In this document: one piece after another, positions 51,967 through 62,487 of the stretch | Position numbering within the stretch: position 1 is the first letter of the stretch | How the letters are laid out: each line of letters opens with the position of its first letter | Assembly: GCA_963798085.1 (NCBI GenBank) | Contig: CAWCRS010000008.1 | Coordinates: 160,001 to 224,000 of the forward strand | Reading direction: 5' to 3' | DNA length: 64,000 nucleotides | Source of the DNA: an uncultured Gemmatimonadales bacterium | Lineage (GTDB): Bacteria; Gemmatimonadota; Gemmatimonadetes; Longimicrobiales; RSA9 | Translations under genes and position numbers: made by a program | Notes under the pieces: generated by a model | The model's input: only the letters and a program-made list of their open reading frames with translations | Databases searched by the model: none | Told to the model about the DNA's origin: nothing

Positions 51967-54840
51967 TCATCCGCTCGCACGCGCGCGCCGCCGCCGAAGC
52001 CCGAGGCCCATGAGCACGACGAGCAGCAGCGCCAATGGCACCAGCAAGGGCAGGGGCGAGAATGGCGCACGCAGGTTCAGCGTGACCAGCGGATCGCCGA
52101 CCAGCGTGAACGCGGCCCATTCGTGCGGAGCCGCACCACGCCGGATGGCACGCAGCTGTGCGCCGCGCAGGGCATCGGCCACATTGCTGTGTCTGGCCAG
52201 TCCACGGTACACGTCCTCGACGAAGCGTGCGGCCGCGGCATCACCCACCGCCCACTGACTGGCCAGCACTGCACGGGCGCCGGCCGCGAGCAGCGGTGCC
52301 GTCAGACCCTGCACCCCCTCGCCGCGCACGATGGCGCCGCCCGCCGTGCGACAGCCGGACAGCACCACCAGATCCGCCGCCAGCTGCAGACCGGCCAGCT
52401 CCGCGGGCGTGACAAACCCGTCGTTAGAAGAGTCCGGCGCCAGCACCAGGGCCGTGCGCTCCGCACTGCGATCATCGACCTGTGCGTGCGTCGCGAAGTG
52501 CAGCACGGCGAACTGCGCAGCCTGCTGGTCCAGCGCGGACTCCGAAGCGGCCGAGCCGGTACGCACATCGGACCGCGGGAAGTAGCGCGCCACGGCCCGC
52601 ACCTCGTCGCGCGACGCGGGCAGCCGCGCGAGGCCCGCCGATTCCGCGAACATGCGGGGCACACCCACGGAATCGGGCATGCGGCCGGGCGAGGGATCGG
52701 TGGGATCACCGAACGCGAGCAGGGAGGGCGGCTGCGACGCGTTGCGGCTCGCCAGCAGTGCGCTGGCCAGCGCTGCCGAGGGCGCGAGCGCGATGGCGTA
52801 ACGCTCGATCAGGTAGTGGCCATCTCGGTCCAGCAGCGCAGCGAACGGCAGACGATGAAGTACGTCGTCAGGAATCAGAATCAGCCGCGTCACACCGGAA
52901 GGCAGTGTGGCCAGCGCCGTATCCAGCAACGCGCGTCCCAGCTCCCGTGCCGGCGCGCGCAGTGCAGTCGAATTATCCAGCAGCGCGAGCAGCGCATCGA
53001 TGCGCGGGGCCAGTGAGTCGATCGCTGGCAGTGTGAATGCGCTTGCGCTCGAGCGTGTGACGAGGAAGAGCGTCGTCGCTTCACCACCGCGACCGGTCAC
53101 GTATTCCAGCAATGCGGTGGCATCGTCCAGGGACTGCTGCACGGAGTTGAGCGTGGTCCGGCTCTCGGGAATGCGCGCGTGCGCGGCGGTGCTGGTGTCG
53201 CCACGCATGCGGCCCGCGCGGTAGCGGTCGTACAACGCGCGCGCCCGCCGCTGCTCGGCGTAACGGAAAGCCGCACTGATGCGGCCCGCGGCAACGAAGC
53301 GCTCGAGGATGGTCGCGAAACCGAGATCCGGATCGGCCGGACTGTACCCCATCTGATAGGAGAGCAGGCGCAGGTCGGCGTCGTGCAGCGTGCCGCGCCA
53401 CTGGTCCAGCCGGTCCGCCGCTTCCCGCAGCGCCCCATCCGCGCCATCGAGATCACCCGACCTCGCCAGCAGCTCCGCACGCATGATCTCGAGCTGGTAG
53501 TGACGCACCGGCTGTTCCGGACGGTTGAATGCGGAATCGAGCGCGCTCCCCGCCCCCGCGAGATCACCGGAGCGCATGAGTGCGATCGCGAATTCGGGCG
53601 TGAGCGCTGCGCCATCGCCCGCGGAGCCGGTGGCGCGCGCGACCGCACGCGCGGAATCGAGATAGGCGAGCGCCGCGGCCGGCCGGTTCTCGCGCAGCAG
53701 CAGGTCCGCCCAGCGGCGATACTGCCGCAGACGGAAGGATGGGTCCTCCGCTGTCCGGCCCCGGGCTTCCAGTTCGGTCAGCCGCGCACGCACATCGGCC
53801 AGCGCGCCGATCTGCAGTGCAACGACCGCCAGATTCTCGTCCGCATTGAGCACGCGCGCGTCATCGCCGATCGCCTCGAACAGCGCGCGCGCTCTCTCCG
53901 ACTCCTCCTGCGCAGCCGCAATGTCGAACGTGGCGATGGCATCCCAGCCGAGCGCCAGGCGCGTCATGGCCAGCGCCCAGTCATTGCCGGACGCAGCAGC
54001 CTCGCGCAGCGCCTCCGTCAGATAACGCCGTGCAAGGGTGTGGTTGTCCACCGAGGTGAGGATGCTGCCACCCAGCTGCAGCGCCACAGCCAGTGCGGCG
54101 CGGTCGTGCGCGGCTCGTGAGAGGGCGACGGCGCGCAGAATGCTCTGGCCCGCGGCGGGCACGTTGCCGGCGGCGAAGTCGAGATTCGCGAGCGCCAGCA
54201 GACAGCGTGACTCGACACGCGGCTCCGCCATGGCGCGGGCCAGTTGTGCTCCCCGTGTCGCGTCCGCACGTGCCTGCTCGCGATGCGCCGTCCTCGCGCT
54301 CGAGTAGGAGGCCCGTGCGCAGAGGACGCGCGCGCGCAGTCCGGGATCGCCGCCCAGCGAGCGTCGCGCGAGCCGCTCGAACAGCGTGTCAGCCGAGCGC
54401 GCATCGGCGCCGAACCGCGCTGCCGCCACACCCAGCAGCGCCTCGGTCTCGCCGGCATCGTCGTGCAGCACCCGCGCCGTCGTCATGGCCGCGAGCGCGC
54501 GGTCCGCGGCATTGCGCCAGCGCGCGCGCACCAGCAGCGCCTCGGTCTGACCCAGCAGTGCCCACACCGTCCACGGGTCGACCGCGCCGCTCTCCGTGGT
54601 CAGGCGGGCGTACAGCGCTTCGGCGGCGGTGTAGTCGTAGCGAAGACGGGCCAGTGAGGCGAGGCCTAACACGGCAGCACGATCGGCGGAATCGCGCGCC
54701 AGCGCGGCATGCCAGCGCGCCTCGAGCGGCGCAACGCTGTCCGCCTCCACCGCGTGCAGCGCCTGCCGCACCACAGCCCGAGGGTCCGCCGGGCCCGCCT
54801 GCGCCAGCAGCCAGCCTGCGACCAGAAACGCGATCGGCAT
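51967..54840 (-). CDS. TPR-CHAT (caspase-like) protease with N-terminal signal and C-terminal membrane anchor
   Basis: Helical TPR-like region; LIPDDVLHRLPF, catalytic HFATH and LSGC, SQWAVGD, WAAFTLVGD; terminal LLVPLALLLVVLMGLGLRRRR. Confidence 0.9.
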   Translation of the reverse strand: MPIAFLVAGWLLAQAGPADPRAVVRQALHAVEADSVAPLEARWHAALARDSADRAAVLGLASLARLRYDYTAAEALYARLTTESGAVDPWTVWALLGQTEALLVRARWRNAADRALAAMTTARVLHDDAGETEALLGVAAARFGADARSADTLFERLARRSLGGDPGLRARVLCARASYSSARTAHREQARADATRGAQLARAMAEPRVESRCLLALANLDFAAGNVPAAGQSILRAVALSRAAHDRAALAVALQLGGSILTSVDNHTLARRYLTEALREAAASGNDWALAMTRLALGWDAIATFDIAAAQEESERARALFEAIGDDARVLNADENLAVVALQIGALADVRARLTELEARGRTAEDPSFRLRQYRRWADLLLRENRPAAALAYLDSARAVARATGSAGDGAALTPEFAIALMRSGDLAGAGSALDSAFNRPEQPVRHYQLEIMRAELLARSGDLDGADGALREAADRLDQWRGTLHDADLRLLSYQMGYSPADPDLGFATILERFVAAGRISAAFRYAEQRRARALYDRYRAGRMRGDTSTAAHARIPESRTTLNSVQQSLDDATALLEYVTGRGGEATTLFLVTRSSASAFTLPAIDSLAPRIDALLALLDNSTALRAPARELGRALLDTALATLPSGVTRLILIPDDVLHRLPFAALLDRDGHYLIERYAIALAPSAALASALLASRNASQPPSLLAFGDPTDPSPGRMPDSVGVPRMFAESAGLARLPASRDEVRAVARYFPRSDVRTGSAASESALDQQAAQFAVLHFATHAQVDDRSAERTALVLAPDSSNDGFVTPAELAGLQLAADLVVLSGCRTAGGAIVRGEGVQGLTAPLLAAGARAVLASQWAVGDAAAARFVEDVYRGLARHSNVADALRGAQLRAIRRGAAPHEWAAFTLVGDPLVTLNLRAPFSPLPLLVPLALLLVVLMGLGLRRRRARASG

Positions 54841-54963
54841 GCAGGAGGTTACGCACGCCGCCGCGAAAGGCAACTATCCGGACCATGGGTGGACCATCCG
54901 CAGCGCGCCTGGCAGCCGTCGCTGACCGGTGGGTTCCCGGGCGATGCGGCCAGCGGACTGCGG

Positions 54964-55639
54964 TCAGGGCGTCCTGACGCGGAAGTTGCGCACGGGGGAA
55001 CGGATCTCCGCGCCGGTCTTCGTGAGTGCGCTCACGAACCAGTTGTAGGCGACGTCGCCGCCCAGCCCTTGCGTCGCGCCCACGGTCAACGCCGTGTCCG
55101 TCGTCGCGGTGGCAAAGGCGCGCGTTCCGCCGGCCGCGAGTACCGTGACCCGATACTCGAGGGCGCCCGGCAGCGCGTGCCACACCAGCTGCACGGGGAG
55201 CGCAACCGTCGCGCCCGCCGCCGGACCCACGATCGCCATGGTTGCGGTGGCGCCGCGCAGCGTGTCGGACGCAGTGCCGCTGGCGCCGCACCAGCTCGGT
55301 CGTGATGCCGAGCACGACGAGTGCCGCCAGCGCGAGGGCGGGCCGGCGCCAGGAAGAGAAGCGTCGCCTGCCCGAAGCAGAAAGGACTTCCATGAAGCCC
55401 GACCTGCGCTCCGCCTGGCCCGCCCGCGCAATGCCATCGGCCAGCAGGAATTCGTGGTGGCACTCCGGGCAGGCCATGACGTGATCGAGTGTGGCGAGCC
55501 GCGCGTCTTCACCAACCGTGCGTTCGACCAGTGCCACGATCGCTTCGGGCGCCACGCAGCCGGCGCGCGTGGCCGGCCTCACACTAACGGCGTGGTAGGC
55601 CGCACGCAGCCGTGCGTCGGACACGTTCGGCTCGCTCAT
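54964..55639 (-). CDS. Zinc-finger (zf-HC2/ZAS) transmembrane anti-sigma factor (one +1 frameshift at about 55283)
   Basis: HVMACPEC (HxxxCxxC), TM helix PALALAALVVLG, then TLRG and an FN3-like extracytoplasmic domain (LVWHALPGALEYRV...YNWFVSA). Overlaps the sigma stop by 4 nt. Confidence 0.8.
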
Positions 55640-56186
55640 CCCGCAACTCCCGGACCGATACCCATGCGTTGCAGTTCCTCCCTCAGTTCGGCCAGCCCGC
55701 GATAGAGCAGGTTGCGGGTCTTCGCTTCCGTCCAGCCCATGAGCCGCGCGATCTCCTGCCGGTCATGCCCGCGCAGGTACATGCGCACCACCGGTCGCCT
55801 GGTGTCGTGAATCCTGGCAATGGCGCCGTCGATCACACGCTCCAGTTCCTTCTGCTCCAGCTCGCTCTCAGGCGAGGCCGCCGCTGCAGGCGGGTCCGCC
55901 ACGCGCTCGCCCGGCTGCGACGCGACGCCTTCAGCGAAGCGCGCCCGCCGCCGCCGCATGAAGTCGATCGCGGCACTCATGGCTGTCCGGTATATGTAAG
56001 ACGCAGGCGAGGCTTCGATCTGCTCACCCCCGTGCTTCGCGTGCCACAGCCGGATACGCACTTCCTGAACAGCTCGTCGACATCGTCCCCGGCCAGTCCG
56101 TGCTGCGCCGCGACATGCCCGAGCAGCCGGGCATACCGGTCGAGCACAGCCTCCAGCGCTGCCGAGAGACGGTCGGGTGAGGTCAT
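55636..56186 (-). CDS. ECF sigma-70 family RNA polymerase sigma factor (one missing base at about 56068)
   Basis: Region 2 DVDEL/QEVRIRLW...SYIYRTAMSAAIDFMRR; region 4 EIARLMGWTEAKTRNLLYRGLAELR. Confidence 0.88.
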
Positions 56187-56322
56187 GCGTCACGGTCGCA
56201 CGCAGGGAGCCAGCGAACAAGTCCGCTGGCGGGTCAGCAGTCCGTTCTGTGCAGGAGTACGTGAGGAGGTCCAGCCCCGGGAACGCCAGCCGAACACGCG
56301 TGGAGACAGCCGCGAATGGCAT

Positions 56323-56676
56323 TCACGGCAGGTCGTCCAATGATTTCAGGACGGCAGCGGGAAACGATCCGGCCGGCGCACTTTCCAGCAGAACCCGTTC
56401 GAATCGCCGGAACGCATCGCTGCGCGCGACACGATCGGATCGGACCCGGCGTGTCACGACGCCGCCGAAGGCAGCGTACTCGACATCGTCAGCCGTGAGT
56501 GTGCATCCGCGGTAGCCGAGCGGCGGCGCAGCGGGTGGCGACCCGTGGAACGCATCCAGCGTCTGCCAGATCGCCTCGAGATCGCGCACGACACTCGCGT
56601 CGACATTCCACGCGGGATCCGGTCTGCCGGAAAAGACGCTTGCGCCCGCTCGTCCGCTGCGCCCGCGTTCAGCCAA
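56323..56676 (-). CDS. Small hypothetical protein homologous to the N-terminal domain of the upstream gene
   Basis: TTG start overlapping the upstream stop by 8 nt; VFSGRPDP...PPLGYRG...FE motifs shared with 56669-57583. Confidence 0.65.
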   Translation of the reverse strand: MAERGRSGRAGASVFSGRPDPAWNVDASVVRDLEAIWQTLDAFHGSPPAAPPLGYRGCTLTADDVEYAAFGGVVTRRVRSDRVARSDAFRRFERVLLESAPAGSFPAAVLKSLDDLP

Positions 56677-57583
56677 TCTTGATGTGCCCGTGCATGACGA
56701 TCATGAACGTGCAGAAATCGGTGTACCAGCCGCGGTCTGCGGTCCTGGGATCGGAGATCGTGTTGCCGGAGTTGTCCACGTTGGTGACTGCAGTGCCGCC
56801 CGGCTTGTGCGTCCACATGCCGTCGCGGCCCTTGCGATACCAGTGGAAATCCCATCCGGGCCCCACGACCAGGGCAACGAGGTGGCCTTCCTCGGGGCAC
56901 TTGTTGTCTGCGCCCGGACTGTCGATGAGCTGATCGCGAATGGCGGCCGCCCTGACTTCGGGGCAGGTGATGCTGTGGTACTGGTCGCCGGCCGCACGCC
57001 CGGGTTGTGCGAACGTGTCCGTCCGATAATTGGTGCCGTAGTTGTAGCAGTTGTTGTGAGGTTGCCGCGCCGGCACGTTCCACCACCCGGGCTCGTACAG
57101 CGGCGCGCACTTGCATCGGTTCCTGTGCTTGTGCCGGCATTTCGCCGGCGGGTCGCAGTGGCGCTCGTCCCAGTGGTAGGTGCGCCAGTGGTCCGCCAGC
57201 TTGCGGAACTCGCCGACCGCTTCCGTCAGTCGCTCAGCGGGCAGGTCTCCGCGTACGCTGCCCGTGACGAATTCCTCGAACCCGTCGTCCGCGATCCGGC
57301 TGGCGGACTCCGGTCCCAGCGCGAAACCGTCGGCGACGCGAAACGCGCGTGGCAATCCGGGGATCGGCATGCCGAACTGCTCGACCAGAAGTCCACGATA
57401 TCCCAGCGTCGGCACGGGTGGTAATGCGACGTCGCTCCTGCCGCGGCTTTCGACCGGCGTCAGACGTTCGACGATGCCACCGAGTTGCGCACCGCTGAAC
57501 TCGACCACCGGATTCTCCCTGCCGCTGAAGACGTCGATCGTGATCCGCAGCCGGTCCGCTGCCTTCCGTCGTGCTTGTGCCAT
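56669..57583 (-). CDS. Putative Cys-His (papain/transglutaminase-like) enzyme with N-terminal FSGRxxP/LGYRG domain
   Basis: GGAGG RBS; NNCYNY, FAQPG, DFHWYR, WTHKPG motifs; no signal peptide. The fold assignment is inferred. Confidence 0.6.
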   Translation of the reverse strand: MAQARRKAADRLRITIDVFSGRENPVVEFSGAQLGGIVERLTPVESRGRSDVALPPVPTLGYRGLLVEQFGMPIPGLPRAFRVADGFALGPESASRIADDGFEEFVTGSVRGDLPAERLTEAVGEFRKLADHWRTYHWDERHCDPPAKCRHKHRNRCKCAPLYEPGWWNVPARQPHNNCYNYGTNYRTDTFAQPGRAAGDQYHSITCPEVRAAAIRDQLIDSPGADNKCPEEGHLVALVVGPGWDFHWYRKGRDGMWTHKPGGTAVTNVDNSGNTISDPRTADRGWYTDFCTFMIVMHGHIKIG

Positions 57584-58027: not shown

Positions 58028-58402
58028 ATGGTGCGTGTGCTGGCTGCCGTCATACGGCGCAACGGGCGAATGCTGTTGTGTCGGCGGCCGACGCACAAGC
58101 GGCACGGCGGTCTCTGGGAGTTTCCCGGAGGGAAGATCGAGCCTGGCGAGTCCGATCTCGAGGCGGCGCGGCGAGAATTGCGGGAGGAGCTGGGCGTGTA
58201 CGCCACCGGCGCTGGCCGCGTGGAAATGACCGTGGCAGACGCTGGATCGGACTTTGTGATCGAGTTCATTCCGGTGAACATTGAAGGCGAACCGGCGTGC
58301 CTGGAGCACAGCGAGCTGGCGTGGCTCACACCGCCCGAGATACTCGCGCTGCCGCTCGCGCCCAGCGATCGCACGTTCGCCGAAACTCTACCAGTCCGGT
58401 AA
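58028..58402 (+). CDS. NUDIX hydrolase, MutT/NudG-like (deoxy)nucleoside triphosphate pyrophosphohydrolase
   Basis: Complete Nudix box WEFPGGKIEPGESDLEAARRELREELG. Confidence 0.93.
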   Translation: MVRVLAAVIRRNGRMLLCRRPTHKRHGGLWEFPGGKIEPGESDLEAARRELREELGVYATGAGRVEMTVADAGSDFVIEFIPVNIEGEPACLEHSELAWLTPPEILALPLAPSDRTFAETLPVR

Positions 58403-58413
58403 CCCGGGCGATC

Positions 58414-58944
58414 ATGAGCGGAACTCGGTCCTTACTGCCAGTGCGACTGCAGCGGCAGCTGGAACGCTGGAGCGAACTCTGGCACGTGCAGGGCATGGCG
58501 GAAGCGCTGGAGATCCGGAGCAGCCACAGGCTCAAGCAGTCGCTGGCTCGCTGCAGACCGGAGGAAAGCAGCATCACACTTCGCGCCGATCTGCTCGCGT
58601 CCCGATCACGCCGTCTGGAAGAAGTACTCTGCCATGAAGCCGCACACGTCGCGGTCCACCGACTTTACGGGAAACGTACACAACCTCACGGCGATGAGTG
58701 GCGCAGCCTGGTGCGCCAGGCCGGATTCGATCCGCGCGTGAAGGCGGAACCGGAGTCTGCGGGGCCGCGCGGTCTGAAGAACGTCAGCAGGCTGGAGTAT
58801 GAGCACCGCTGCCCGGTGTGCCAGAGTGTGCGGTACGCGCGGCGGCCCGTGAGTCGCTGGCGTTGCGCGGATTGCCTCAATGCGGGCCTGGAAGGTTGCC
58901 TGATCATTACACGGCATTCCGGTCGACGCGCAGCGGAGTCGTAA
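58414..58944 (+). CDS. SprT-like zinc metalloprotease with C-terminal zinc ribbon
   Basis: VLCHEAAH...PHGDEW; CPVC...WRCADC. Confidence 0.85.
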   Translation: MSGTRSLLPVRLQRQLERWSELWHVQGMAEALEIRSSHRLKQSLARCRPEESSITLRADLLASRSRRLEEVLCHEAAHVAVHRLYGKRTQPHGDEWRSLVRQAGFDPRVKAEPESAGPRGLKNVSRLEYEHRCPVCQSVRYARRPVSRWRCADCLNAGLEGCLIITRHSGRRAAES

Positions 58945-58947
58945 GCG

Positions 58948-61900
58948 ATGGCCTGCCCCTACTGCGACGTCGCACGCGATCGCTGCTTCTACACGGGCGA
59001 GCTCGTCGTTGGATTCTGGCATGAGAACGGTGCTGGCGGTTCTGATCCGATGGCTCTGGTGGTCACTCGCCGGCATGTCGCAAGCTGGTTCGACGCGAGC
59101 ATGCCGGAACAGGCAGAGCTGGCTCGAGCTCTGGCAGTGGCACGCATGGAGCTTGCGCGCATCCACGCCTTCCCGGGCTTCCGCATTTCCATAGACATTG
59201 GCGTCGCCGCAGGTCAGGCAGTTCCGCACCTCGCCGTTCAGCTCCGACCGTATCGCGCACGCGACGGGCTATCCGGTGTTGACGCTGACTCGCCGAACGA
59301 CGCTCGCCTGGCGGGCGTGCGTTCGCAGACGTCAGCGGATGTGCCGCATGCGCGCGCCCTCGTGCGTGGCGGCGAAGACGATCCACTGCTGCCGCACCTG
59401 CTCGCCTGTCTCGATGGCGCTCGCAACGTCGATATTGCGGTTGCCTTCACCATGGAGAGTGGTGTGCGCGCGCTGGACGAGCATCTGCGCGACGTGCTCG
59501 ATGGCGGCGGACGAGTCCGCATTGTGACCGGGGACTATCTCGGCATTACGGAACCCCGCGCATTGCTGCGACTCCTCGATCTGCAGGGGGACTTGCAGCT
59601 GCGTGCCTTCGAGAGCGGCGGCCTCAGTTTCCATCCGAAGGCATACATCGTAACCGACCGCGCTGGGGCAGGCACGGCCTTTGTTGGCAGCTCCAACCTC
59701 AGCGAAACCGCGCTGCGCGGCGGCGTGGAATGGAACTACCGTGTCATCACGTCGCGGGACCGGGCCGGGTTTGGCGACGTGGTGGATGCATTCGACAGAC
59801 TCTTCTCGGATCCGCGCTGCGCTCGCGTTGATGCGGCGTGGGTGCGCCGCTACGAAGCGCGCCGTACGCCGCCGCTGCCCGATCGCACCGGCATCGCCGT
59901 CGAGCCACTATTGCCACCGCCCGAGCCGCACCCGATTCAGCGGCAGGCGCTCGCTGCGCTCGAGGCGACACGCGCCGAGGGAAACAGTGCCGGCCTCGTT
60001 GTGCTCGCAACCGGTCTGGGCAAGACGTGGCTGAGCGCATTCGACAGCCAGCGTCCGGAGTATCCCCGTGTACTCTTCGTGGCGCACCGCGAAGAGATTC
60101 TGGCCCAGGCGATGAACACGTTTCGGCGGATCCGGCCGGCTGCCACACTCGGCTACTACACCGGCAGGGAGAAGACGGCTGACGCCGATGTGCTGTTTGC
60201 GTCCATCCAGACACTGGCACGAAGCGAGCACCTGCAGCGTTTCGGCCGGCGTCAGTTCGACTACGTCATTGTCGACGAGTTTCACCACGCCGCAGCGAGT
60301 TCGTACCGCAAGCTGATCAACTACCTCGAACCGAAGTTCCTGCTCGGACTGACCGCGACGCCGGAGCGCACGGATGGCGGCGACCTGCTTTCGCTGTGTG
60401 GCGACAACCTGGTGTACCGCTGCGATGTGGCGGAAGGCATCCGCCAGGGGTTGCTCTCCCCGTTCGCCTACTTCGGTGTTCCGGACGATGTGGACTACGA
60501 GAACATTCCCTGGCGCAGCAACCGCTTCGACGAGACCGAGCTGACCAACGCACTCGCCACGGAGAAGCGGGCCGGCAATGCACTCGAGCAGTTGCAGCGC
60601 CACGGCGGGCGGCGCGCTCTTGCCTTCTGCGCCTCGCAGCGACACGCGGATTTCATGGCGCGCTTCTTCAACGGTGCGGGCCTTCGCGCGGCTGCCGTCC
60701 ACGCTGGAGCAGACTCGGCACCGCGTGCCCGTTCGCTGGAGCGCCTTGAGGCCGGCGACCTCGACGTGGTGTGCGCCGTCGACATGTTCAACGAGGGCGT
60801 CGACCTGCCCAGGGTCGACACCGTTCTCATGCTGCGGCCTACGGAATCGCGCATCGTGTGGCTGCAGCAATTCGGTCGCGGTCTGCGCTACGTTCCCGAC
60901 AAGCAGCTCAAGGTTATCGACTACATCGGGAACCATCGCGTCTTCCTGACGAAGACGCGAGCACTGCTCAACCTCGGTGACTCGAATCGCGATGTCGCCT
61001 ACGCTCTCGACCAGCTGGAGAAAGGCACGCTCGAGTTGCCGCCCGGCTGCGCCGTAACCTACGACCTCGATGTAGTGAGGATACTGCGGGCGCTCGTTCA
61101 GCCCGCGCAGGTGCACCAGCTGCTGGAGACGTTCTATCGCGAATTCCGGGAACGCCTCGGCCGCCGGCCACTCGCGCTGGAATTGTTCAACGAGGGTCTC
61201 GATCCGAAGAGCGTGCGGAAGCACCATGGTTCCTGGCTCGATTTCGTTCGCAACATGGGCGATTTCGATGCGCAGCAGGAGCAGGTGTGGAACGGGCTGC
61301 GCGATTTCCTGCGCGAACTCGAGGTCATGCCGCTCGTGCGTGCGGACCGGATGCTCGTGTTCCTGGCACTCGTCGGCATGGATGCGTTTCCGGGACATGC
61401 CGGGCTGGCTGCGGTCGCCGAGCGCGTCGCTGAGCTCGCGAAGCGCTGGGCGGTCGTACGTAACGAGATCGGCAACGCTGTGAACGATCGTACTGCGCTG
61501 CGAACGCTGCTGAACGGCGCTGTTGCGGAACTCACTCGCGACGGGAGGGCCGGTGGCGCATGGTTCACCTCTGACGGCGAATCACTGGCGAGTTCACCGG
61601 ATCTCGATGTGCCGCCCCATCTGCGGGAGACGATCCAGGACCTGGTGGGCGAAATCGCGGACTGGCGGATCGCCCAGTACGTACGGCGCACGTCGGCGTC
61701 AACGGCAGACCGCATCATCTGCAGCGTGAGCCACAGCGCCGGCCGTCCCATTCTGTTGCTGCCGTCGCGCGAGCGGCACGAGGGGATCCCCGAAGGCTGG
61801 CGCGATGTGGTCATCGAAGACAAACCGCACCAGGCGAATTTCGCCAGGATCGCCATTGGCGCCGTAACGGCACCGGAATCAGAGGAGAACATTCTGCCGG

Positions 61901-62487
61901 CGCTGCTTCAGAAGTGGTTCGGCCCGGACGCAGGAAAGCCGGGGCGTACGGATCGCGTGCTCTTCCGGCGTGCCGGCAATGAGTACGTGATGTCGCCGAT
62001 GGGCGACGACGAGGGGGGACGTCGGCCCGAGTTGTGGCAGCGCTACGCGCGGCGCGAGTTGCCCGCGCTACTAGGCTTTGAGTTTCAGAGCGGCGAGAAT
62101 CGGGACGGGGTGATCTACAGGGAGGACTTGATCATTCTGTTTGTGAATCTCGAGAAAGCGGACGCACCTGACACTCAGCGGTACGCCGATTATTTCGTTT
62201 CGCCAACGGAGTTCCATTGGCAGAGCCAAAGTACTACCTCTCGACGACACAAACGCGGCCGTCCGCTGGGCGAAAGCCGTGAAAAGGGAATCAAAGTGCA
62301 CCTATTCGTGCGCAGGTGGAAGAAGATTTCAAAGAACACGCAGCCATTCATTTACTGCGGCCCGGTCGAGTTCCTCCGCTGGGAAGGCGACAAGCCAATC
62401 AACGTCTGGTGGCAGCTGCGCGAGCCCGTTCCGGAGAACCTCTGGGTGGAACTGCAGATCCGGAGCCTGGATCCGCCGCCCACCTGA
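58948..62487 (+). CDS. Degenerate HIT + PLD nuclease + SF2 (DExH) helicase + DUF3427-like domain; SauUSI-like type IV restriction candidate
   Basis: CPYC...RRHVASWF...AAGQAVPHL (HIT-like); FHPKAY...GSSNLS...EWN (PLD); ATGLGKT, DEFHH, TATPER, MFNEGVD, QQFGRGLR (helicase); YADYF...FHWQSQS...VHLFVR...FIYCG...KPINVWWQL (DUF3427-like). Confidence 0.88.
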   Translation: MACPYCDVARDRCFYTGELVVGFWHENGAGGSDPMALVVTRRHVASWFDASMPEQAELARALAVARMELARIHAFPGFRISIDIGVAAGQAVPHLAVQLRPYRARDGLSGVDADSPNDARLAGVRSQTSADVPHARALVRGGEDDPLLPHLLACLDGARNVDIAVAFTMESGVRALDEHLRDVLDGGGRVRIVTGDYLGITEPRALLRLLDLQGDLQLRAFESGGLSFHPKAYIVTDRAGAGTAFVGSSNLSETALRGGVEWNYRVITSRDRAGFGDVVDAFDRLFSDPRCARVDAAWVRRYEARRTPPLPDRTGIAVEPLLPPPEPHPIQRQALAALEATRAEGNSAGLVVLATGLGKTWLSAFDSQRPEYPRVLFVAHREEILAQAMNTFRRIRPAATLGYYTGREKTADADVLFASIQTLARSEHLQRFGRRQFDYVIVDEFHHAAASSYRKLINYLEPKFLLGLTATPERTDGGDLLSLCGDNLVYRCDVAEGIRQGLLSPFAYFGVPDDVDYENIPWRSNRFDETELTNALATEKRAGNALEQLQRHGGRRALAFCASQRHADFMARFFNGAGLRAAAVHAGADSAPRARSLERLEAGDLDVVCAVDMFNEGVDLPRVDTVLMLRPTESRIVWLQQFGRGLRYVPDKQLKVIDYIGNHRVFLTKTRALLNLGDSNRDVAYALDQLEKGTLELPPGCAVTYDLDVVRILRALVQPAQVHQLLETFYREFRERLGRRPLALELFNEGLDPKSVRKHHGSWLDFVRNMGDFDAQQEQVWNGLRDFLRELEVMPLVRADRMLVFLALVGMDAFPGHAGLAAVAERVAELAKRWAVVRNEIGNAVNDRTALRTLLNGAVAELTRDGRAGGAWFTSDGESLASSPDLDVPPHLRETIQDLVGEIADWRIAQYVRRTSASTADRIICSVSHSAGRPILLLPSRERHEGIPEGWRDVVIEDKPHQANFARIAIGAVTAPESEENILPALLQKWFGPDAGKPGRTDRVLFRRAGNEYVMSPMGDDEGGRRPELWQRYARRELPALLGFEFQSGENRDGVIYREDLIILFVNLEKADAPDTQRYADYFVSPTEFHWQSQSTTSRRHKRGRPLGESREKGIKVHLFVRRWKKISKNTQPFIYCGPVEFLRWEGDKPINVWWQLREPVPENLWVELQIRSLDPPPT

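Follow-up and report, generated by a model that had tools for sequence, protein, structure and literature searches.

A SprT/Spartan-like protease gene conserved beside a predicted SauUSI-type modification-dependent nuclease in bacteria

The type IV restriction enzyme SauUSI of Staphylococcus aureus is the closest described relative of an enzyme encoded in a three-gene locus of an uncultured Gemmatimonadales bacterium. We analyzed this locus within a window of 64,000 nucleotides (nt), namely positions 160,001-224,000 of contig CAWCRS010000008.1 (assembly GCA_963798085.1); coordinates below count within the window. The PLD catalytic residues of SauUSI were defined by mutagenesis and a nudix gene is linked to sauUSI in S. 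aureus, according to the accessible part of PMC3141236, and the part of PMC7913695 that is available gives M829, Y831, F841, I842, D858 and W868 as its reader pocket. The locus encodes, on the + strand, a NUDIX hydrolase of 124 amino acids (aa) (58028..58402), a SprT/Spartan-like zinc metalloprotease of 176 aa (58414..58944) and a SauUSI-like enzyme of 1179 aa (58948..62487), all three found as open reading frames (ORFs) with Pfam matches and the first and last also with PADLOC matches. An earlier sequence-only reading of this DNA had described three co-oriented genes with gaps of 11 nt (NUDIX-SprT) and 3 nt (SprT-nuclease), and the ORF coordinates agree with it. A promoter-like site was looked for at the locus and none was found.

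The protease has its best-described counterparts outside restriction systems. Human SPRTN is activated by DNA junctions, which act through its zinc-binding and basic regions, and its cuts fall in segments that are flexible and basic (PMC9240642, in the sections accessible). CapP, a metallopeptidase of immune operons that is stimulated by single-stranded DNA, cleaves a helix-turn-helix (HTH) repressor, as stated in the available portion of bioRxiv 10.1101/2022.04.27.489752. The SprT-nuclease pair is like CapP+CapH in having a metallopeptidase attached to a putative immune operon, but the SprT-nuclease loci showed no conserved gene for a repressor, and the SprT model matches the CapP fold weakly (E 0.9). 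To our knowledge, no function has been assigned to bacterial SprT proteins. The window SprT has the Pfam SprT-like domain in common with the bacterial SprT family (PRK04860 and PRK04351), whereas it falls in a separate clade tied to the SauUSI-like nuclease and scores well under both NCBIfam cut-offs (42 versus 175 bits and 20 versus 113, respectively).

The conserved unit at these loci consists of two genes, SprT and the nuclease, and the NUDIX gene is optional. In a nuclease-first scan of GTDB (68 loci, the duplicate L034 being dropped), SprT lay directly upstream of the nuclease in 37 of the 49 scorable loci and was absent from 12; another 18 were not scorable, among them L088, which carries a frameshifted SprT. 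The SprT-positive loci come from seven named phyla, with two further loci that have no phylum label. SprT is thus far from missing at nearly all homologous loci, and its inclusion in the module by the sequence-only reading was no mistaking of a chance insertion. The reverse survey started from SprT and used the best 80 of 154 confirmed metagenome loci, a set that was not deduplicated and contains several identical pairs. Sixty of the 69 loci in this set with at least 300 nt of downstream DNA continue into the HIT domain of the nuclease, and 40 of the 44 with at least 1200 nt reach its PLD/helicase part. Among the orphan SprT loci, L107 and L178 still hold a truncated HIT start, and others, among them L094, L095, L163 and G299, have unrelated neighbors. 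The recurrence expected for three genes therefore holds for the SprT-nuclease pair, the NUDIX-SprT-nuclease arrangement being the less common form of it.

Divergence of SprT tracks that of the nuclease core (Mantel rho 0.37, p 0.001, 56 pairs), and the two agree in their nearest neighbors in 39 of 56 cases, both values being inflated by near-duplicates. The mean identity is 38% for SprT and 64% for the core. A FastTree tree of the core was built from 54 rows, excluding fragments and loci with heavy frameshifts; in it, loci without SprT fall at scattered places within the HIT+SRA clade, with six state changes. This scatter indicates that SprT depends on the nuclease, which itself has no strict need of SprT. 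Taken together, co-divergence, repeated loss and the rarity of SprT kept alone mark SprT as an accessory, neither an antitoxin nor a chance insertion. At L033 a weak SprT remnant (E 0.002) precedes the HIT-fused enzyme; a second, HIT-less SauUSI-like gene lies in tandem downstream of that enzyme (L033:5603-12499).

A sister clade (L075, L076, L085 and L091) has the same HIT-PLD-helicase core and lacks the SRA domain; its proteins end in an S24 peptidase of the LexA type in which Ser and Lys are both present. SprT is absent from all three scorable loci of this clade. By analogy, the clade may serve as a precedent for proteolytic control of a SauUSI-like enzyme.

The 176-aa SprT protein matches the Pfam SprT-like family (1.7e-16) and has a zinc site composed of H74, E75 and H78 (HExxH) and the downstream H92, followed by the zinc-ribbon cysteines C133/C136/C151/C154. 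These catalytic and zinc residues are invariant in 86 relatives. The clade comprises 396 representatives at E below 1e-30 and is basic, with a mean net charge of +15. Among the 268 SprT relatives retrieved, which are about 40% identical, HExxH is found in all 268 and the four-cysteine ribbon in 265. Such retention, together with a position fixed across at least seven phyla, makes it hardly credible that SprT is a functionless hitch-hiker on a mobile nuclease, the explanation that its repeated loss would suggest. PADLOC 2.0.0 gave no match for SprT in 85 of the 86 family members (E 0.01), and one had a weak DruE match (0.0073). The PADLOC and Pfam check proposed by the sequence-only reading thus recognized the large protein and the NUDIX in PADLOC, and not SprT.

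The SprT model (pLDDT 87.4) has a zincin fold, and its top Foldseek match is human SPRTN (6mdx, E 1.7e-5). The alignment to SPRTN (VIA; Z 10.2, root mean square deviation 4.4) covers 131 residues (residues 9-155) and includes the zinc ribbon. Abylysin, a minimal archaeal protease, ties with SPRTN (Z 10.1), but its alignment is confined to the catalytic domain. Human SPRTN (6mdx, 6mdw) and yeast Wss1 share with the window SprT a HExxH domain of zincin fold and, after it, a subdomain that binds zinc, and SPRTN, the best fold match, is likewise basic. In contrast to SPRTN, the window SprT has 176 aa and lacks the C-terminal extensions, is 18-19% identical, and is encoded next to a restriction nuclease; its DNA-activated proteolysis is predicted by analogy.

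SprT might instead be no protease at all and serve as an accessory that binds DNA or hydrolyzes nucleotides or base modifications, in the manner of the HIT, NUDIX and MazG-like companions. NUDIX-SprT fusions in 4 of the 268 relatives would fit this role, as would the MazG-like genes that lie near some loci and the occurrence of the zincin fold in non-proteases such as YbeY, which reaches Z 7.2 to the SprT model. We nevertheless consider it improbable, given that the best fold matches are proteases, that only the SPRTN match covers the zinc ribbon, and that HExxH and the third His are invariant. The small gene in the upstream position of the SprT-less locus L067 (L067:2109-2417) is presumably MazG-like; nucleotide hydrolases may thus be exchangeable as partners.

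Judged by its sequence and predicted fold, the large gene encodes a SauUSI-type PLD-SF2-SRA enzyme, in line with the type IV architecture that the sequence-only reading had recognized. The domain order is HIT, PLD nuclease, SF2 ATPase, helical coupler, an extra beta-rich domain and the SRA/DUF3427 reader. ResIII, Helicase_C, PLDc_2 and DUF3427 all exceed their Pfam cut-offs, the protein matches PADLOC mREase_IV (2.6e-116), and the closest solved structure is SauUSI (7clg), with E 1.7e-90 by sequence and E 7e-43 by fold, the latter for a model of the 1179-aa protein with pLDDT 81.9. Residue tallies in the nuclease were taken over 45 full-length, non-duplicate relatives. In the PLD (HxK) domain (about residues 140-290; 59365..59817, delimited by alignment to SauUSI), H229/K231/N250/E261 align with the catalytic H119/K121/N139/E150 of SauUSI and are the same in 45/45 relatives. 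The SF2 helicase-like ATPase (about residues 326-661; 59923..60930, ResIII and Helicase_C) agrees with all 45 in Walker A K359, the DEFH motif (D443-E444, H447) and motif VI (Q641, R644, R647). Alignment with relatives likewise confirmed as intact the Nudix, HExxH, PLD and helicase motifs noticed earlier.

The window enzyme and SauUSI have the PLD - SF2 ATPase - coupler - SRA/DUF3427 order and the four PLD catalytic residues in common, and both keep the equivalents of D858, W868 and F841 in the SRA domain, and each is linked to a NUDIX gene at some loci. SauUSI lacks the N-terminal HIT and the extra domain of about 105 aa, both of which are present in the window enzyme, and the latter differs further in its altered Y831 and M829 equivalents, in the conserved SprT gene upstream in its family and in sharing a genome with a Dcm/EcoRII-like methylase. 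The extra domain, delimited in the model (61696..62010), sits between coupler and SRA and has no match in Pfam or among PDB sequences; it is cleanly deleted in 6 of the 45 relatives. A dependence of SprT on this domain was rejected because L038, L041 and L045 keep SprT without it.

The SRA/DUF3427 domain (62029..62457; DUF3427 6.7e-27, alignment to SauUSI) bears on what the enzyme may recognize. The equivalents of D858 and W868 are kept in the window enzyme and in 44/45 and 43/45 relatives, respectively. The F841 equivalent is kept as well, and the I842 position is conservative (V). The position of the methyl-contacting Y831 is V in the window enzyme, with F in 28, Y in 6, V in 6 and I in 5 of the relatives, and the M829 position is D.

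The sequence-only reading had remarked on the lack of a methyltransferase nearby. This is correct for the 28 other window ORFs scanned, none of which encodes one, but a C5 methyltransferase occurs elsewhere in the same genome. The 8.6-kb contig C11 (G000:C11, L183:1222-3982) carries an HTH-fused Dcm-like C5 methylase with Vsr and an EcoRII-C nuclease. From its sequence, this methylase may methylate CCWGG or CCNGG, in which case SauUSI specificity would be self-destructive; the contig might also be misbinned. Under-representation of CCWGG/CCNGG in the genome is mild (0.86-0.94) and uninformative. A family search found C5 methylases in 12 of 47 carrier genomes, compared with 4/36, 4/61, 8/61 and 33/61 in lineage controls, which include a few carriers. 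A depletion of methylases in carriers had been considered when a single Dcm-like query gave 2/47 and was rejected on the 12/47 of the family search set against these controls. The accessible text of PMC6765204 states that DUF3427 enzymes are able to coexist with methylases whose context differs.

With two pocket residues changed, a methylase in the host and carriers that are not depleted of methylases, specificity of the SauUSI-like enzyme for 5-methylcytosine (5mC) is uncertain; by analogy with SauUSI, plain 5mC as the target seems to us evenly balanced. The domain is likely a base-flipping reader of modified cytosine that would act in another context, on another mark, or under control.

Our tentative reading, which falls somewhat short of an even chance, is that the locus is a mobile modification-dependent restriction cassette in which SprT is a DNA-activated protease that cleaves its partner nuclease when stalled or trapped on DNA. 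Its parts are of different strength. By analogy with SauUSI, the enzyme is very probably a modification-dependent defense nuclease. Given such a nuclease and a DNA-activated protease, the partner nuclease is the substrate of SprT with a likelihood just under one half. As with SauUSI, the SRA domain would flip out a modified C, the flipped base would switch on ATP-driven translocation, and a PLD dimer would cut the DNA. As with SPRTN, the basic zinc ribbon would bind nicked DNA or single-/double-strand junctions and so turn on proteolysis of DNA-held protein. We would then guess that SprT cleaves the partner nuclease, limiting self-damage or freeing stalled enzyme. The HIT domain and the NUDIX, the former decayed and the latter intact here, may assist as nucleotide hydrolases that prevent modified nucleotides from entering host DNA. 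Cleavage of its own nuclease would account for three traits of SprT: it has no use alone, can be dispensed with, and is inherited together with the nuclease. EcoKI reportedly offers a parallel, in that a restriction enzyme is proteolyzed on self DNA. A predicted complex between SprT and residues 1-815 of the nuclease scored 0.00 and was used neither way.

Alternatively, SprT could strip phage proteins that coat DNA, are bound to its ends or inhibit restriction, so that the translocating nuclease reaches the DNA, a form of counter-counter-defense. Near DNA junctions, SPRTN attacks unstructured basic regions in a variety of proteins bound to DNA (PMC9240642, in the part available), and an easily lost accessory that diverges faster than its core, as the mean identities above indicate, fits an arms race. 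We regard this alternative, a close competitor of our reading, as somewhat unlikely: by itself it gives no reason for SprT being so rarely found alone or with another nuclease, and no phage target was identified. A broader possibility, which we hold to be rather doubtful, is that the proteins form an immune Spartan clade, in which a DNA-structure-activated protease, dedicated to a type IV restriction enzyme, would destroy nuclease that is covalently trapped on DNA, with the fused HIT domain hydrolyzing the remaining phosphohistidine P-N link in a SPRTN/TDP1-like manner, or would strip covalently bound and shielding proteins from phage DNA. The rescue by HIT would draw on the covalent phosphohistidine intermediate of PLD enzymes and on the cleavage of P-N bonds known for some HIT enzymes.

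Several points weigh against cleavage of the nuclease by SprT within a 5mC-directed defense cassette. SprT has been lost in at least seven SRA-bearing loci with no visible harm. The linker between HIT and PLD is variable and has no conserved cut site. In the sister clade the S24 peptidase replaces the SRA reader, so it may substitute for the sensor and not for SprT. The Dcm/EcoRII-like methylase of the host argues against the exact S5mCNGS specificity of SauUSI, and carriers show no depletion of C5 methylases. Within the window the cassette stands alone and not in a defense island, no defense-type gene being found among the 28 other ORFs scanned, so that a defense role is drawn from the family. 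Defense and SprT proteolysis are themselves activities predicted from homology and analogy.

The HIT fusion that the sequence-only reading singled out as unusual is a family-wide feature, but in this copy the domain is degenerate. The N-terminal HIT domain (about residues 1-105; 58948..59262, from alignment and a weak Pfam match) scores 21.2 bits against a cut-off of 21.5. In all 45 relatives H35, H43, H94, H96 and H98 are invariant, whereas the window copy carries M35, A96 and Q98 in place of His. Its H-x-H-x-H triad, intact in 45/45 relatives, accordingly reads H-L-A-V-Q, and the DPRGG motif that follows the triad is also lost, with the zinc ligands C3, C6, H43 and H94 retained. The HIT domain of this copy has thus, by its sequence, lost its catalytic histidines. 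Its mean identity to the relatives is 40%, compared with 59% among the relatives, and the core and SprT are typical. A frameshift as the source of the decay was rejected because no other reading frame restores the motif. The decay is seen in one assembly; contigs of run X1 span the SprT-nuclease junction (58762-58994, with one difference) and not the triad.

The HIT domain of L027 has decayed likewise, and the intact SprT beside a decayed HIT in L027 and in the window genome implies that HIT and SprT are not strictly coupled. As a rule, replacement of a dead HIT by NUDIX was rejected: NUDIX accompanies a HIT that is still intact in L024, L063, L065, L066 and L074, and in L027 the HIT is dead and NUDIX is absent.

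The NUDIX protein matches Pfam NUDIX (5.4e-21), contains the Nudix box G-x5-E-x7-REUxEExG and matches the PADLOC candidate PDC-S07 (8.7e-30). It is 55-58% identical to the NUDIX genes that adjoin the HIT-less SauUSI-like genes L006 and L007, so by sequence it would belong to a clade accompanying SauUSI-like enzymes. No further tblastn match to it was found in its own genome. Its best NCBIfam match is PRK10546, a pyrimidine (d)NTP diphosphatase, at 98 bits, under the cut-off of 156; we take PRK10546 to be the model of E. coli NudG. NudG/Orf135 and PDC-S07 are small Nudix hydrolases like the window NUDIX, which differs from NudG in its sub-threshold score and in being optional in the cassette, and its substrate is predicted. 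NudG hydrolyzes 5-methyl-dCTP (PMC3744803, accessible portion), and a role of the window NUDIX as a sanitizer of modified deoxynucleoside triphosphates is plausible from its sequence.

The sequence-only reading had proposed a three-part defense module, and an obligate system would need NUDIX, SprT and nuclease alike. The tight spacing, the existence of NUDIX-SprT fusions and the recurrence of the three-gene order in G010, G112, L024, L063, L065, L066 and L074 speak for it. However, NUDIX lies upstream in just 5 of the 33 SprT-positive loci with enough upstream DNA in the nuclease-first survey and in 11 of 57 loci of the SprT-first survey (best 80 of 154). Its absence from most loci makes NUDIX optional, which agrees with S. 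aureus, where deletion of the nudix gene beside sauUSI gave no relief of restriction (PMC3312211, in the part accessible). The three-part module is therefore not upheld, and an obligate three-gene system is very improbable. At G299 (L177/L194), a NUDIX-SprT fusion ORF has no nuclease gene across the 20 kb fetched.

The distribution and composition of the cassette suggest mobility. A close orthologue was found only in G010 among 60 relatives, with none in a same-genus genome, and a strong full-length SprT match in 3 of 401 genomes of the phylum. The G+C content at third codon positions (GC3) is 0.71-0.76 in the three genes and 0.79-0.86 in four neighbors, and among the 23 window genes over 200 aa none has a lower GC3 than the large gene. 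An empty insertion site was not found in the same-genus genome, since gene order near the downstream gene is not preserved there. No member of the SprT clade was found on plasmids; phages gave four motif-only matches and viral contigs one. The earlier expectation of defense-type neighborhoods was borne out in relatives, where a defense, toxin-antitoxin or nuclease-type Pfam neighbor lies within 2.5 kb at 20 of the 38 flanked loci, with classes assigned by the author to 96 heuristic ORFs from 36 loci and the window as the only control. These neighbors include GmrSD, McrB-like AAA, HNH, AbiEi/Eii, AbiJ, Schlafen-g3, HEPN, PIN, RelE and BrnT. Sequence evidence thus suggests that the cassette was likely acquired horizontally and is likely anti-phage.

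Every domain family here has a member in repair, as is generally known, and the SprT model best matches SPRTN, so the locus could be a module for repair of DNA-protein crosslinks or DNA ends (a SPRTN-like protease, an aprataxin-like HIT, a TDP1-like PLD and a helicase) with no role in defense. We find this quite improbable, as the PLD is of the single-HxK SauUSI type and is joined to an SRA reader, the distribution is patchy in the counts just given, the neighbors in relatives are of defense type and the HIT of the window copy has decayed.

The locus of the closest relative (L092-L093, G010:C28) has the same NUDIX-SprT-nuclease order with a frameshifted nuclease, partial duplicates downstream and a McrBC-like pair upstream. 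Elsewhere in the window, an extracytoplasmic function sigma factor, a small protein and a 968-aa TPR-CHAT (caspase-like) protease are encoded in a row (51967-56322, - strand). Next to them (56326-57580, - strand) are two adjacent genes with no Pfam match and with similar N-terminal segments, the larger having a Cys/His-rich C-terminal part.

The nuclease core is of a known kind, and the novelty would lie in the SprT partnership. No paper that pairs SprT with a SauUSI-like or HIT-fused enzyme was found in a literature search that covered few subscription journals; the supplementary homologue tables of PMC3141236 and PMC7913695 may list HIT-fused members. A distinct SprT clade tied almost exclusively to one restriction-type nuclease in at least seven phyla offers a small, testable system for the targets of bacterial Spartan proteins. 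If the enzyme tolerates Dcm-type methylation of its host, it may read a cytosine modification or context other than that of SauUSI. An immune Spartan clade, if real, would link the proteolysis of DNA-protein crosslinks in eukaryotes to bacterial defense.

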